DNA of 64,000 bases from Eledone cirrhosa. Taxonomy: Eukaryota. Numbering within the stretch: the first letter of the stretch is position 1; each line of letters begins with the position of its first letter. Of this stretch, positions 7,489 through 63,964 are shown in pieces. The stretch lies in the NCBI GenBank assembly GCA_964016885.1, contig OZ024744.1, positions 69,998,001 through 70,062,000 on the forward strand, read 5' to 3'. Position numbers and translations under genes: made by a program. The notes below the pieces were generated by a model that was not told where the DNA came from, did no database searches, and saw nothing but the letters and a program-made list of their open reading frames with translations.

Positions 7489-7530
7489 TTGATGACCCGG
7501 TGATAAACAGGAGAAACTCCAGAGTATATA
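7489..7530 (+). ncRNA. 5'-truncated hammerhead ribozyme motif
   Basis: TTGATGA CCCGGT-gataa-ACAGGA GAAA CTCCAGAG TA, followed by a TA-rich array. The 5' strand of stem I is absent. Confidence 0.45.
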
Positions 7531-7721
7531 TATAGACATATACATACTATATATACTATATATATTATACATATACTATATATATATACAAAGTATACAT
7601 ATATAGTATAGTTATATATTTAGATTATATATATAACTCCAGACTCACTATTAAGCCTTAATAGAACGAATATATTTGCAAAATAAATACATAAATAACA
7701 TCCTTTATTAATTTTACAGAA

Positions 7722-7913
7722 AGGTGGTGGATTGGCAGTATCGGTAGAGGGTCTGACGCCATGCTTTGCAGCAAAGAGTTACGGCCCTTTATGGTCTGAG
7801 TTCAAATCCCACCGAGGTTAACTTTGCCTTTCATCCTTACGGGGTCGATAAAATAAAGAACCAGTAATACACTGGGATAATTGCTGCTAGCCTTGTACCA
7901 AAAGTAGAAACAG
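7722..7913 (+). mobile_element. tRNA-derived SINE, family A (about 20 copies or fragments in the window)
   Basis: A-box-like TGGCAGTATCGG, B-box GAGTTCAAATCC, conserved body GCCTTTCATCCTTACGGGGTCGATAAAATAAAG, 14-bp TSD TTAATTTTACAGAA (7708-7721 / 7914-7927). Other copies near 1710, 3705, 3965, 4480, 5415, 5610, 18511, 18717, 18973, 19320, 19523, 21955, 29590, 31390, 33000, 33700 and 43540. Confidence 0.9.
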
Positions 7914-8040
7914 TTAATTTTACAGAAGGTTGAAAAACTTCACAATGAATTTCTTGACAATCGAATACTGCCAAATAACATAATTCTCCCACAAAACAGG
8001 TGACCGATCATCACCTGTTTATTCAACACTGGCTTTGAGG

Positions 8041-8085
8041 AACAATCAACATTTTTCTGGGTCATAACCCTTCATCAGGACTGTT
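8041..8085 (-). ncRNA. Degenerate minimal hammerhead ribozyme (Penelope-tail type)
   Basis: Minus strand: AACAGTC CTGATGA AGGGT-tatg-ACCCA GAAA AATGTT GATTGTT. Stem I AACAGTC/GATTGTT pairs over 7 bp. The cleavage triplet is degenerate. Confidence 0.6.
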
Positions 8086-8896
8086 GAATAGGAGAAAATA
8101 TATATATGCAAATGTATATTGCTCTGCACTTCTTTATGCAGCTGCTATCCTCCGTACACATTACATGTCCATACCACATTACATGTCCTTATATATATAT
8201 ATATACTTTTGTAATTACTTGATCATCATCTGCTTATGCTTATTATACAAAATACATCATCATTTCATCATTTCATTTTACCTCCGCTTTTCCCTGCTTG
8301 CAAGGGTGGGACAGGAACTGATTCTGGCTTGATTTCTACAGCTGGATGCCCTTCCTAACATCAACCTCATTTACAGTGAGTGCTGGGTGCTTTTTTGTCG
8401 TGGTACCTACATGTCCACTTTACAGTGTGGGCTGGGTGCTTTTTGCTGTGGCACCTCCACGACCACTTTGCAGTCCCTATCATCTCATTTCTACAGCTGA
8501 GTGAAGTGGAGCAATGTGAAATAAAGTGTCTTGCTCAAGGAAACAACACATCACCCGGTCTGAGAATTGAACTCACAACTTTTCGATTGCAAGATGAATG
8601 TTCTAACCACTAAGCAATGTGCCTCCATACATACATATATATATATCATCATCATCATCATCATCACTTTACGTCCGCTTTTCCCTGCTTGAAAGGGTTG
8701 GACAGGTCCTATTCAGCATAGCATCTCTCCACTTGTCACGGTCCTTCGTCATCTCACCGGTGAGTTTCAGCGATCTGAGGTCTGCTCTCACCACCTCCGC
8801 CCATGTTTTTCATGGTCTACCTCTACTGCGTCTTCCTTCTACTGGGATTTCTTGGCACTTCTTTGGAAAATGTGTGAGATCCTTGGTACAGTTAGG

Positions 8897-9043
8897 TATA
8901 TTTGAAAAAAAAGGAAAAGAATGACTTCACTTGTAGTTCTAAACAATTTGATTTAATTTTATAATCAACTCATAATATTATAATATTATAAAATTAAATC
9001 AAATTGTTTAGTGAAGTCATTCTTTTCCTTTTTTTCAAATATA
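8897..9043. repeat. Inverted repeat (hairpin) adjoining a (TA)n array
   Basis: TATATTTGAAAAAAAAGGAAAAGAATGACTTCAC...TAAACAATTTGATTTAATTTTATAAT is mirrored by ATTATAAAATTAAATCAAATTGTTTAGTGAAGTCATTCTTTTCCTTTTTTTCAAATATA. Confidence 0.9.
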
Positions 9044-9210
9044 TATATATATATATATATATATATATATATAAGTAGAAGGGGTATTTAATTTGTTGGA
9101 AGTCCAACAAATATAAATGTTTATAACTGATTTAGAGCACTCAACAGTTTACTGGAGTAAATATTCAATGATATTAAATAAATGGAAACTATATTTATAA
9201 AACCATATTT

Positions 9211-60558: not shown

Positions 60559-60911
60559 AAGTTGATGCCTGACATACCTTGACTATGTTGATGGTTATAA
60601 TTTAGTCATGGCAGTGATTAGTTATGACAAAACTCAATATTTATATACCTTAAGTTGAAACATGAAAAATTACATATAATACAGAGGGTGCGTATGAGAA
60701 TGTGTAAAAAGATATATAAATAATTAACAATATATAATACATAAACTTCTATAACTGTTAAAAATTTAAATAATAATAATATATTCATACCTCATTATTG
60801 TTGATAGTGTAAGTGAGAGATCGAGATAGCAAATCATGAGGAAAGAGTTTTGTCATAACTAATCACTGCCATGACTAAATTATAACCATCAACATAGCCA
60901 AGCATCAACTT

Positions 60912-60975
60912 ATTTTATCTGATGAGGAAGTACTGCTGAAATAGCTCAGTATCTCTGAAATATGTATAATAAAAT
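60912..60975 (+). ncRNA. Type I hammerhead ribozyme (ATTTTAT family, mirror copy)
   Basis: ATTTTAT CTGATGA GGAAGTACTG-ctgaaatagct-CAGTATCTCT GAAA TATGTA TA ATAAAAT. Confidence 0.85.
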
Positions 60976-61429
60976 ATATTTGATCACATGAATGTCTATA
61001 TTTATTAATATTTTGAACTAATATATTAATAACTCCAGAAAACTTCTTGTAGAGTGCTTATAATCTATTGTGAAACTTTATTCATTGATGAATTCATTGA
61101 ACCTTGTTAAACTTTTAATTATATATATATATAGTAATAATAATAAATTTGAAGACTAAAATCCAAAGAGGGCTCAATAGGGATAAATATATATCAAATA
61201 TATAAGAACCGTAGAGCAAATATTTATTAAAATAACAGATTAAAATTTAAGCAAAGAATCGCAGCTTTCACCCTTAACGGGATCTTCTGAAACTAAAAAA
61301 ATCAGTGAGCGCAGAAGTAAAACAAATATTTATATCCCAGACAGAAATGTTAACTTTTATTTCTATATACTTTTTTTAATATAATTGTCTGCTGGTGGAT
61401 TTTGTATTTCGCTCTATATCTTCACCATC

Positions 61430-63730
61430 AACAAGAGGAAGGCATCGACGACAACAGTGACGTTAACAACAACAACTCTACCATTAACAAGAGGAAGCAT
61501 CAGTGACTCACCTCCAGCCACAAGGTCCTATGACAAACTGCTAAGTTGCTCGCATGTGTGCGTGCTGAACTCTGGGTCTTTCCGCTGGGAACAACCCCCT
61601 GTCCCCCCCCCCCTTTTTTGTACATTCATCCATTCACTCATTCATTTACTAACATTCTACCTTCCTGTGTCTCACCCTCCATGCAACCCCTTCTTTTCTC
61701 TCTTGTTTTCTGACACCTCCATATATATAGGTGAGCTATGAGGCCTTCTTACCAGCACTTTCCCTCCCACCCACACACGCCAGTCACCCACCCCTGATGC
61801 CGCTCGGTACCCCAGTCCCCGGCCCCACGCCCCATCACCATCCTTCCAAACCGACACCTGCAGCACTTGCAGCACCACTAACAAATGGAAGAGGGGCCGG
61901 AACTGTCTGGGGTGTGGCTGCTTCCACCACCTCACCTGCGTTGGCTTGACTCGTCGAGCTTCCAATGCCCTCGCAGATTGGAGGTGCAGGAGCTGCCTCT
62001 TTCCCACGTCTTCTCAACCACGGCCGTCTGGCACACCACTAGATGGGACAGCGAGCTTGTCTGACGCCCGAGCCTTGCTGGTCAACATCTCTCGGCTCAG
62101 GCGGCTCCGGAAGATCCCACTCAGGATCCCGAGAACGGCACGGGTGCCGGTAGCCGATGCCCTCACCTCCTCGATTGAGAGCGCCCTGGACTCCAATCGA
62201 TCCAGTGACTGGGAGCGGTTGCTCTATTTCGCCCCACTCGCCCTCGGCCTCCCCAGCTCTGGCGCTGACCGGGTCGGCCGGTCAATAGCAGACTTCGTCA
62301 AGGCCAATGTCTCGTCCTTTGGGCGAGCGCCCATTCCAAGCGTGCCCAGGGACGCCACACACCCCACCCTCAGGTACCCCTTATCCTCCACCCCTGAGGC
62401 CAGCGCCTAGCGTTTTCGTGACCAAGTAAACGCCAAGCTTATCATGGGTGATGTCTCGGCCGCAGTCAGAGTTGTTCCCACCGAGGAGGTCCTGGCTGCT
62501 CTGCGACTCAAACACCCTGAGCCACCCACTGATCTCAGACCCATACCCTCACCCGACCCCCACTTGCTCCTTGTGGCTTCTGATGCAGACATCATGTCCG
62601 CCATCAGTTGCTTCCCAGCTAGCAGGTGCGGAGGTGTTGATGGTCTCCAACCAGGCCACCTCAAGGAGTTGACATCCCCCCTCTCCGCTGAGGCCGGGCG
62701 CCGTCTTCTGAGTGAAATTGTAGTGCTCACCACTAAGCTCATCCATGGTGCCCAGGACCTTTACGCCCGTGGCCTCTTTTTTTCGGCCAACCTCACCGCT
62801 CTCAGGAAGAAAGAGAGTGGCATACGCCCCATTGCTGTGGGCAATGTATTCCGGAGGCTGACTGCCAAGGTGATCTGCAAGTCCGTAACACACGAAATGG
62901 GTGAGGAGTTTAGTCAGGTGCAACTAGGTGTCGGCGTGTCCGGTGGTTGCGAGGAGGCCGCTCATGCAACCAGGCAGTTCTTCAACAGCTGCCCATCAGA
63001 ACCGGCATCCAGGGACTCCAGGCACCTCATTGTCAAGCTTGACATGAGGAATGCCTTCAACTCTCTACGCCGGGATAATCTGCTCGAGGCCTGCCTCAGC
63101 TGAGCCCCCCCCTGCCTACCCGCTGGCCGACCTGTCATATGGAGCACCAAGCATGCTCCTTGCTGCTGATACAGTCATACCCTCGGCTACTGGGGTCCAA
63201 CAGGGTGACCCTTTGGGACCCCTCCTGTTCGGTATTGACCACATCGCCCAGAGTATCACGGCCCCTCTCAACATTTGGTATCTGGATGATGCTACCTTGG
63301 GCAGGCCCGTACAGACGGTCTACCATGACCTTCAATCGGTGGTTCCTGCCCTGGCGGGAATCGGCCTCCAGGTCAACTCCGCCAAGTCGGAGGTGGTGAA
63401 CGTCAGCCTCGATGTTGCGAGCTTTGCAGCCTCTTTCTTGGACGTGCGGTCCATTCTCCGCCAGGTTCAGGTGACCCTCAAAGAGGATGTCCTCATCCTC
63501 GGATCACCGATCCACCCACCGGCCATCCGCTCCACCATCAGGTCCAGGCTTCAACAGCTCCAGACTCTCACGAGCCGACTGGGCTTGACTGACGGCCACC
63601 CAGCTCTCTTTCTGCTGAGGAACTGCTTCGCCATGCCGAAGCTCCTCTATACACTCCGCAGCGCTCCGTGCTACACCCAGACATCTCTCCTCGCTGACCT
63701 CGATACTTGTATCCGAGCAGCAGCCGAATG
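61430..63730 (+). mobile_element. CRE-clade non-LTR retrotransposon (N-terminal Cys-rich region plus RT), frameshifted and 3'-truncated
   Basis: LRLKHP, GGVDGLQPGHLKEL, ANLTALRKKESGIRPIAVGNVFRRL, QLGVGVSGGCE, KLDMRNAFNS, GVQQGDPLGPLLF, WYLDDATL. GC-rich island. Confidence 0.9.
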
Positions 63731-63758
63731 TTTTTTAACCTTCATATCATGTCTCCCT

Positions 63759-63827
63759 ATTTTATCTGACGAAAACGCAAATGTCATCTCATGATGATAA
63801 TTGTTTTTGAAATGCGCATAATAAAAT
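63759..63827 (+). ncRNA. Type I hammerhead ribozyme (ATTTTAT family)
   Basis: ATTTTAT CTGACGA AAACGCAAATGTCATC-tcat-GATGATAATTGTTTTT GAAA TGCGCA TA ATAAAAT. Palindromic stem III TGCGCA. Confidence 0.87.
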
Positions 63828-63964
63828 ACATGGAACTCTTTTAACCATCTTTTGATCTTATATTATATATATATATATATATATATATATATATATATAT
63901 ATATATATATATATAAGAACAAAAGATGGTTAAAAGAGTTCCATGTATTTTATTATGCGCATTT
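63810..63964. repeat. Inverted repeat centred on a (TA)n array
   Basis: AAATGCGCATAATAAAATACATGGAACTCTTTTAACCATCTTTTG.TCTTAT is mirrored after the TA run. Confidence 0.9.

Follow-up and report, generated by a model that had tools for sequence, protein, structure and literature searches.

Penelope-like elements (PLEs) of the Hydra clade that carry hammerhead ribozymes and target (TA)n arrays have already been described, Octopus included: the supplement of Craig et al. (2021, PMC8557442) gives Hydra-1_Obim of Octopus bimaculoides a hammerhead and a (TA)n target, and the available text of that paper calls the role of the hammerhead in PLEs unclear. The stretch analysed here, referred to as the window, comprises 64,000 nt of Eledone cirrhosa (contig OZ024744.1, positions 69,998,001 to 70,062,000 of the forward strand, in the 3.0-Gb assembly GCA_964016885.1 of 1796 contigs), and its positions are counted from its first letter. 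An earlier examination of the letters alone, termed the sequence-only reading, had listed about 15 hammerhead sites and two half-motifs in the window as footprints of TA-targeting PLE and retrozyme families. A hammerhead or hammerhead-derived motif was present at every listed position, and most of these motifs are very probably either the 3' ends of truncated Hydra-clade PLEs (families B, C, D, E, G, I and I2) or parts of a retrozyme lineage that lacks any open reading frame (ORF) (A, H1 and H2), inserted in (TA)n.

All 15 sites fall in dispersed repeat families that carry a type I hammerhead. Nine of them, together with the two half-motifs, are assigned from their sequence to the 3' ends of truncated Hydra-clade PLEs, four to a head-to-tail retrozyme lineage of about 430 bp, and one further site (family F) is probably Hydra (Table 1). 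The family form was kept in ten of the 15 sites, the copies at 7489, 9409, 15067, 58712 and 59074 being decayed; the copy at 8078 passed the descriptor described below with its stem III palindrome lost. As C, D, E and F have a common stem I, A, H1 and H2 are homologous, and I and I2 are homologous, six lineages are recognised, and the families, called unrelated in the sequence-only reading, are not all so. A first look within the genome itself gave at least 1804 candidates for A, 998 for B, 1652 for C, 1177 for D, 576 for E, 1302 for F, 2188 for G, 1186 for H1, 1812 for I and 2245 for I2, which are lower bounds and not copy numbers, with 40 scored per search and 20–30 fetched. H2 and K were matched within fetched loci only.

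The assignment to the Hydra clade is carried by ORFs linked to the hammerheads. The longest copies of C and G extend upstream into a GIY-YIG domain and, with the C-linked Hydra endonuclease as query, the family C hammerhead was found 0.6–1.4 kb downstream on the same strand in 23 of 30 loci, so that extension to copies with a PLE reverse transcriptase (RT) and GIY-YIG, proposed in the sequence-only reading, was borne out. Among 25 10-kb regions, picked for an endonuclease match, a long 5' extension or an inverted pair, an ORF followed by the hammerhead, mostly with an inverted upstream copy, was found for B (L222), C (L216, L220, L422 and L423), D (L425), E (L416 and L424), G (L217 and L219), I (L418 and L419) and I2 (L414, L415 and L421), with a linked ORF absent in the remaining regions of this set. 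The whole interval from endonuclease to hammerhead was common to at least three other loci for B, C, E, G, I and I2, with two loci in one bin of one E interval and some of the loci overlapping. Within the window itself tblastn gave no PLE protein match, in agreement with the earlier statement that it contains no PLE RT or GIY-YIG coding sequence.

The Hydra protein marks are those defined in section 11 of PMC8557442. The RWR and DKT motifs were present, as in Hydra, with the G copy in L217 having RVRWR at 54, DKT at 140 and no GxKF/Y in its N-terminal part, and the C copy in L423 having DKT; the RT-motif criterion (RWK, DKT, no GxKF/Y) was examined in these two families. A CxCX5C linker, CxxC and CxH, without CCHH, were found in the endonuclease translations of B, C, D, E, G and I2 and in that of the F-adjacent ORF. 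For family I the endonuclease copy in L418 is decayed, and the linker is present in L314. These proteins are barely detected by Pfam (GIY-YIG, E 0.008, below cut-off), and the RT neighbours in the Atlas are unnamed eukaryotic RT-like clusters. The Hydra assignment is one by motifs, with published Hydra sequences compared by eye. In each Hydra family (TA)6 was reached within 350 nt in 20–29 of the 21–30 copies.

The retrozyme lineage is distinguished by its unit structure. Subfamilies A and H1 are 69% identical over 377 nt, and the element's own 3' end lies upstream of the A hammerhead, and in 16 of the 20 A loci the unit junction falls in register. The unit period is 426–466 bp in the six A loci having both ends and 410–485 in four of 30 H1 loci, and an H2 junction was seen in L421 and L420. 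The units have 37–38% GC and a longest ATG frame of 38–74 aa, and the circular fold gave a z-score of about −9 in all three units. Their hammerhead is canonical: internal loops prolong its helix I, helix II has 4 bp and a tetraloop, and there is a palindromic tetraloop helix III. Between A and H1, six of 27 pairs are altered on both sides, the palindrome being among the parts affected (CTAG to CATG), and 98.4% of cells are paired (25–40% in slid-partner controls). The octamer ATGCAAAT, expected 0.01 times per 200 bp at random, lies 88 nt upstream in eight of nine A-type motifs and 86–87 nt upstream in five of 14 H1-type motifs; family C has one at −126. Newt satellite 2 reportedly has a small nuclear RNA-type promoter with an octamer, a report which the literature search did not retrieve. 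Li et al. (2026) count a retrozyme as active when at least two complete hammerheads follow one another; same-strand hammerhead pairs were found in two of 20 A loci (L004 and L009), both interrupted, and in none within the window. Another retrozyme family was met at L243:2764-3426, as a clean 310-bp head-to-tail trimer of canonical hammerheads with an inverted copy.

Three Hydra families carry variant hammerheads. The core of family G is CCGAAGA in 26 of 28 copies (U4C), a change known from a viroid with reduced activity (PMC3088659, as available). The site at 57382 has this family form of the core in place of CTGANGA. The core in family I is CTGATGT in 26 of 32 copies, with an 82-nt stem II, and in I2 it is CTGATGT in 20 and CTGATGA in seven of 30, with a 79-nt stem II. 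The site listed at 60138 proved to be a complete hammerhead, placed on the minus strand with its core at 60242. G and I2 thus differ from the consensus at one core position as a family trait. The stem II of I and of I2 each fold as a single long hairpin, and between the two families 11 of 31 predicted pairs are altered on both sides, three of them in stem I and two at the base of stem II. Compensatory change, the absence of which had been named as a ground for rejecting the prediction, was thus found in A/H1 and I/I2, with two lineages in each comparison. The description of the motifs as minimal hammerheads with a palindromic stem III applies in part, given the long helix I of the retrozyme and the giant stem II of I and I2.

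No natural PLE example of an A9U or CUGAUGU hammerhead was retrieved in a literature search that had most subscription journals outside its reach. In the part available, one preprint allows CUGAUGU among its relaxed patterns for Rfam sequences. The core change taken by itself may therefore be known already, and what appears to be new is two sister families with this core and a covarying stem II of 79–82 nt. Further families with a normal core and a stem II of 49–96 nt were met at L168:834 and L183:2314 and in L389, L019 and L346; these may explain the 'half-core' Naiad cases noted in the available text of PMC8557442. As the variants with a long stem II demonstrate, too few hammerheads are counted when a descriptor allows short spacers only.

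Every family has a sharp 3' end and staggered 5' ends. The main 3' ends lie past the predicted cleavage site by 36 nt (B), 52 nt (C and D), 43 nt (E), 55 nt (F), 41 nt (G) and 58 nt (I), with later ends near 145 and 207 nt, and copies that read through have TA-like letters at each end point. Among 200 copies met by chance, none ended within 4 nt of the cleavage site and 194 spanned it, so the RT template would span the junction, either religated or uncleaved. Breaks of the 5' end at the cleavage site (11 of 258) were at about local background. Inverted 5' segments and partial tandems are known forms of PLE insertion (PMC8557442, Figure 2 legend). At the family I site, public-run contigs also break into TA at 49886, and none of the contigs from three runs of one sample spans the site. 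It should also be noted that an ACTCC(AG) word lies about 6–10 nt past the main 3' end in C, D, E, F and I (for example at 49886-49900 and 61011-61020 of the window), and in these otherwise different Hydra families it is possibly an RT recognition or promoter word. The 3' untranslated region (UTR) of family B (L062 and L059) contains a TA/TG-rich part of about 1 kb, and with each longer insertion the genome thus gains further microsatellite-like DNA.

It is likely that the hammerheads serve to cut and circularise the element RNA for copying by the Penelope RT. In tandem or read-through transcripts, two hammerheads would pair through their palindromic stem III and then self-cleave, and the unit-length RNA would be ligated into a circle. 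The GIY-YIG domain would nick a (TA)n array and the nicked strand would prime at an internal UA-rich site 36–58 nt past the junction, or at further sites at about 145 and 207 nt. The RT would then copy back over the junction, by which nearly every aborted copy would retain a whole hammerhead, and a run beyond one unit would give pseudo-long terminal repeats (pLTRs) or tandem retrozyme units. The retrozyme would borrow the PLE protein in trans. PLE ends and a retrozyme in (TA)n, together with a ribozyme-made circular template, are regarded as the best overall explanation and a probable one, the circle step by itself being proposed with somewhat less assurance.

The same elements could instead be copied by the RT from uncleaved linear read-through RNA, with hammerheads that are slow, regulatory (for example limiting multimeric transcripts) or passengers, and with no need for a circle. 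This explanation is judged unlikely. Copies spanning the cleavage site are expected from uncleaved RNA too, and the end geometry fits a linear template equally well. The activity in print is low, as minimal PLE hammerheads cleave poorly in vitro even as dimers (available text of PMC4209133) and eight of nine Xenopus retrozyme dimers did not cleave (available text of bioRxiv 10.64898/2026.07.22.740005). Naiad PLEs spread without canonical hammerheads (PMC8557442, as available), and the youngest PLE found here has a U3-A8 core with only a 2-bp stem I before a mismatch.

Further points weigh against the interpretation preferred here. The core changes U4C (G) and A9U (I and I2) should slow cleavage, and RNAcofold gave a dimer with paired stem III in three of seven motifs (E, G and I2), partially for D and not for A, B and C. 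The covariation uses two lineages per comparison, its cells not being independent events; two of five whole-structure A/H1 measures did not exceed shuffles (436/500 and 500/500), and TA-rich palindromes contribute to the low fold energy of the A unit. As for the families, the link of D is one locus with another repeat in between, F shows only an inverted upstream ORF at one locus and K shows none. Against the linear template, cores, stems and palindromes are kept by compensatory change in diverged sister families, which requires selection on the fold, and the same features are kept across 21 clusters of at least two copies in a descriptor-selected set. The several UA-rich priming sites are internal, which fits a template that has no 3' end, and coral, mussel and axolotl have related retrozymes with abundant circles (PMC7229834, as available). 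Internal priming and selection on the fold are the reasons why a circular template, as proposed in the available text of PMC4209133, is favoured.

For A, H1 and H2 another route was considered, namely that they are not mobilised by PLEs and are instead SINE-like, moved by a long interspersed element (LINE) such as CR1 or RTE, or a satellite spread by DNA recombination. No ORF was attached in 20 A and 30 H1 loci, no sequence tie of the retrozyme to a particular PLE end was found, and LINE RT fragments are common in the window. This route is nevertheless very improbable, as the lineage shares the marks of the PLEs: its 3' end is fixed and lies in (TA)n, its 5' ends are staggered, and partial tandems and inverted 5' segments occur. 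Neither poly(A) nor a LINE-like tail was seen on its copies, and A copies are dispersed over many contigs at 98–100% identity. Candidate parents were rejected: the PLE ORF beside the A copy in L009 belongs to another element, a young one of Neptune type that has a different end, family A having matched one of 30 loci of that element, and for the Hydra endonucleases near H2 (L223) and H1 (L271) a CA array or unrelated sequence intervenes. In the case of L223, the unit junction of H2 also counts against the tie.

All CTGANGA cores of the window were listed and every site was inspected on both strands, using a type I descriptor with at least four pairs in each of stems I and II, a near-palindromic stem III and UH. 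Type I cores (CUGANGA, GAAA, UH) with helices I–III in type I order were found. Eight exact-core motifs were obtained (11384+, 58797+, 59609+, 60919+, 63766+, 60551−, 9264− and 8078−), the predicted cleavage positions of five sites (11414, 58842, 59655, 60968 and 63820) being as given in the sequence-only reading. One hundred whole-window and 100 500-nt-block dinucleotide shuffles gave means of 0.01 and 0.05 with a maximum of one, so the excess over shuffled sequence that had been predicted was found. With one core mismatch allowed there were 11 motifs (0.5–0.8 in shuffles, maximum three), and a stricter version of the descriptor gave three (0–0.02 in shuffles). A one-mismatch match at 50266 on the minus strand was dismissed as a GAAA-capped hairpin on the opposite strand of family I read-through sequence. 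The expected association with (TA)n was also seen, a (TA)5 run lying within 300 nt downstream at 12 of 15 sites (26% of random positions), and the inverted repeats said to adjoin the motifs were confirmed in six places (9157-9516, 10872-11255, 49724-49884, 56510-57379, 60489-60981 and 63810-63964). The Rfam check proposed earlier was negative: no hammerhead was among the matches listed for the window, which are filled by TA-driven miRNA models, and none of nine family loci gave a match at gathering score. This would be a shortcoming of the models and not of the fold.

A blind sample of forty 10-kb stretches at round coordinates (400 kb, weighted to large chromosomes) gave 22 exact-core motifs in 12 stretches, compared to 0.2 in 20 shuffles, together with two U3-A8 motifs (0.55 in shuffles) and four long-stem-II motifs (none in ten shuffles). 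Seventeen of the 22 have (TA)n within 300 nt, again against 26% at random positions. The resulting density is 55 motifs per Mb, or about 165,000 per genome, with a Poisson range of 103,000–249,000 that clustering makes wider. At 125 per Mb, the window has only about twice this average and is thus unexceptional in this genome. In 1.68 Mb of fetched loci, 373 distinct motifs fell in 53 clusters, 21 of them with at least two members, counts that are dominated by targeted loci. The idea that AT-rich hairpins and inverted repeats produced the motifs by chance, for which the Rfam result and a region full of palindromes might speak, is refuted by the shuffles in window, blind sample and long-stem-II search, by the covariation and by the location at PLE ends, and has practically no probability left.

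It is tentatively suggested, as a joint statement that is rather doubtful as a whole, that the active-type hammerheads, on the order of 10^5, belong to PLE and retrozyme families numbering in the dozens, every one of which is copied from circular RNA by internal (TA)n priming; that I and I2 are a working A9U form with a helix II of about 80 nt, missed by standard descriptors; that the retrozyme has its own octamer promoter and abundant circular RNA; and that TA/TG insertion and copying feed the microsatellite load.

Table 1. Hammerhead-bearing insertions in the window; cleavage positions are predicted.
Feature	Position	Strand	Details
Family K hammerhead, decayed	7470..7526	+	core TTGATGA at 7489 (C3 changed); stem I 3' strand split off by TA-rich array; core and stem I intact in the relatives found in L107, L211, L308
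Retrozyme subfamily H1 fragment	7999..8104	-	core 8078, cleavage 8048
Hydra PLE family C end	9039..9313	-	core 9264, cleavage 9218; runs into (AT)17
Hydra PLE family C end, inverted partner	9329..9516	+	core 9409 mutated to CTGGTGA
Retrozyme subfamily A insertion	10855..11534	+	canonical hammerhead with core 11384 and cleavage 11414; also an inverted 5' segment, a unit junction and the octamer ATGCAAAT at 11296
Retrozyme subfamily H2 fragment	14903..15260 (ends approximate)	-	core 15067 decayed (G at cleavage position); two octamers (15192, 15159)
Hydra PLE family I, inverted 3' half-hammerhead	49710..49810	-	GAAA at 49794; 3' end in (TA)n
Hydra PLE family I, 3' half-hammerhead	49809..50079	+	GAAA at 49814, cleavage 49825; reads through first end at 49886; kindred sequence to about 50266
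Hydra PLE family G	56510..57642	+	inverted arms 56510-56843 / 57046-57379, 3' UTR and hammerhead; CCGAAGA core at 57382, cleavage 57420
Retrozyme subfamily A copy	58397..58758	-	core 58712; single stem I mismatch
Hydra PLE family B end	58781..58881	+	core 58797, cleavage 58842; runs into (AT)29
Family F (C/D/E-like, probably Hydra)	58940..59131	+	inverted 3' end; core 59074, 3' side rearranged
Family B variant, 87-88% to B	59532..59760 (end approximate)	+	core 59609, cleavage 59655
Hydra PLE family I2, complete variant hammerhead	60084..60285	-	core CTGATGT at 60242, cleavage 60145; 79-nt stem II, CAATTG palindrome
Hydra PLE family D, inverted copy	60472..60847	-	core 60551, cleavage 60502; runs into (TA)36
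Hydra PLE family D end	60845..61133	+	core 60919, cleavage 60968
Hydra PLE family E end	63729..63964	+	core 63766, cleavage 63820; (TA)n; inverted copy of its 3' tail at 63916-63964; host a non-LTR RT fragment

The pile of eight insertions at 56.3–61.1 kb would represent repeated use of (TA)n targets. The window is repeat-rich in general, with LINE RT fragments, one LTR retrotransposon, a mariner fragment and many microsatellites. A GC-rich non-LTR RT fragment with broken frames lies at 61742-63794 (+), its 3' side cut by the family E insertion. The LTR retrotransposon at 51290-55229 (−) has an RT/RNase H/integrase frame that is open over 1038 aa, preceded by an upstream frame of 269 aa, with repeats at 46052-46308, 50657-50913 and 55815-56071 listed alongside it. 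A mariner-like transposase fragment was found at 48598-49395 (+), with terminal inverted repeats at 48776-48884 and 49569-49677. A frequent short interspersed element (SINE)-like repeat of about 200 bp occurs at 1696-1856, 7726-7886, 18514-19137, 29590-29781 and 32980-33198, among others, with three tandem copies at 18512-19130.

Outside the window, the young Neptune-type PLE was found at L114:1897-4230 and in L122 (G000:C4:119552087-119562086) with a 777-aa RT and GIY-YIG frame, its protein being 99–100% identical in 108 of 108 scored matches and its tandem unit 4843 bp long. An upstream 421-aa ORF overlaps the RT frame, with a TTTTTTA slippery-like site. The 3' UTR contains about 1 kb of TA/TG microsatellite, and the element has the U3-A8 hammerhead-like core with a weak stem I. 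It resembles Neptune-type PLEs in having GxKF, DKG, a CX4CxxC linker and CCHH, the clade being assigned by motifs only; it ends in (TA)n, and none of the hammerhead families of the window is its end.

A search of the literature for Penelope-like elements with hammerheads in octopus, or for retrozymes in cephalopods, yielded only PMC8557442, with most subscription journals outside its reach. In the portions available, PMC4209133 names no cephalopod, PMC7229834 mentions neither octopus nor cephalopod, Li et al. (2026, bioRxiv 10.64898/2026.07.22.740005) name no mollusc among the groups in their 35 species, and PMC13282606 counts Penelope in O. vulgaris with neither 'hammerhead' nor 'Hydra' in the text. 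What would be new, judged on DNA sequence, is the abundance, a retrozyme lineage that bears the insertion marks of PLEs, and the covarying A9U hammerhead with long stem II. With many young families, a sharp rule (priming 36–58 nt past the cleavage site and never at it) and named junctions, the circle model becomes directly testable. A retrozyme lineage with PLE marks in an invertebrate falls in a gap that Li et al. (2026), in the text available, name as a limitation, and for annotation about 55 Rfam-invisible repeat ends per Mb can be labelled PLE or retrozyme.

The comparison with known systems refers to the available parts of each paper. The families described here resemble the Hydra-clade PLEs, Hydra-1_Obim included (PMC8557442), in their C-terminal GIY-YIG, CxCX5C linker, lack of CCHH and RWK/DKT motifs, and in having a type I hammerhead with palindromic stem III near the 3' end, a (TA)n target and inverted 5'-truncated copies. 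They differ in number, one octopus family being listed there ('no pLTR') and at least seven linked families being found here, and from Hydra-1_Obim in their hammerhead sequences, in 3' UTRs of 0.7–1.9 kb and in the fixed U4C core of G and the A9U core with 79–82-nt stem II of I and I2. With the minimal PLE hammerheads (Cervera and de la Pena, 2014, PMC4209133) they share a long helix II, a short helix I and a palindromic helix III (palindromes of 6–10 nt in that comparison), and likewise mostly single truncated copies, opposite-strand pairs 100–700 bp apart, a U3-A8 variant and a proposed circular template; helix II is 7–8 bp there and up to 79–96 nt here. The retrozyme lineage is like the metazoan non-LTR retrozymes (Cervera and de la Pena, 2020, PMC7229834; Li et al., 2026) in being ORF-less, below 45% GC, arranged head-to-tail, self-paired as a circle, provided with one canonical type I hammerhead and accompanied by coexisting PLEs, and its U-U at the base of helix II recalls axolotl HHR_Amex2. 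Its unit of about 430 bp compares to 170–400 in PMC7229834 and 51–972 in Li et al. (2026). Unlike the reported retrozymes, it has mostly one or two units per site, inverted 5' segments, fixed (TA)n ends and a conserved octamer 87–88 nt upstream.

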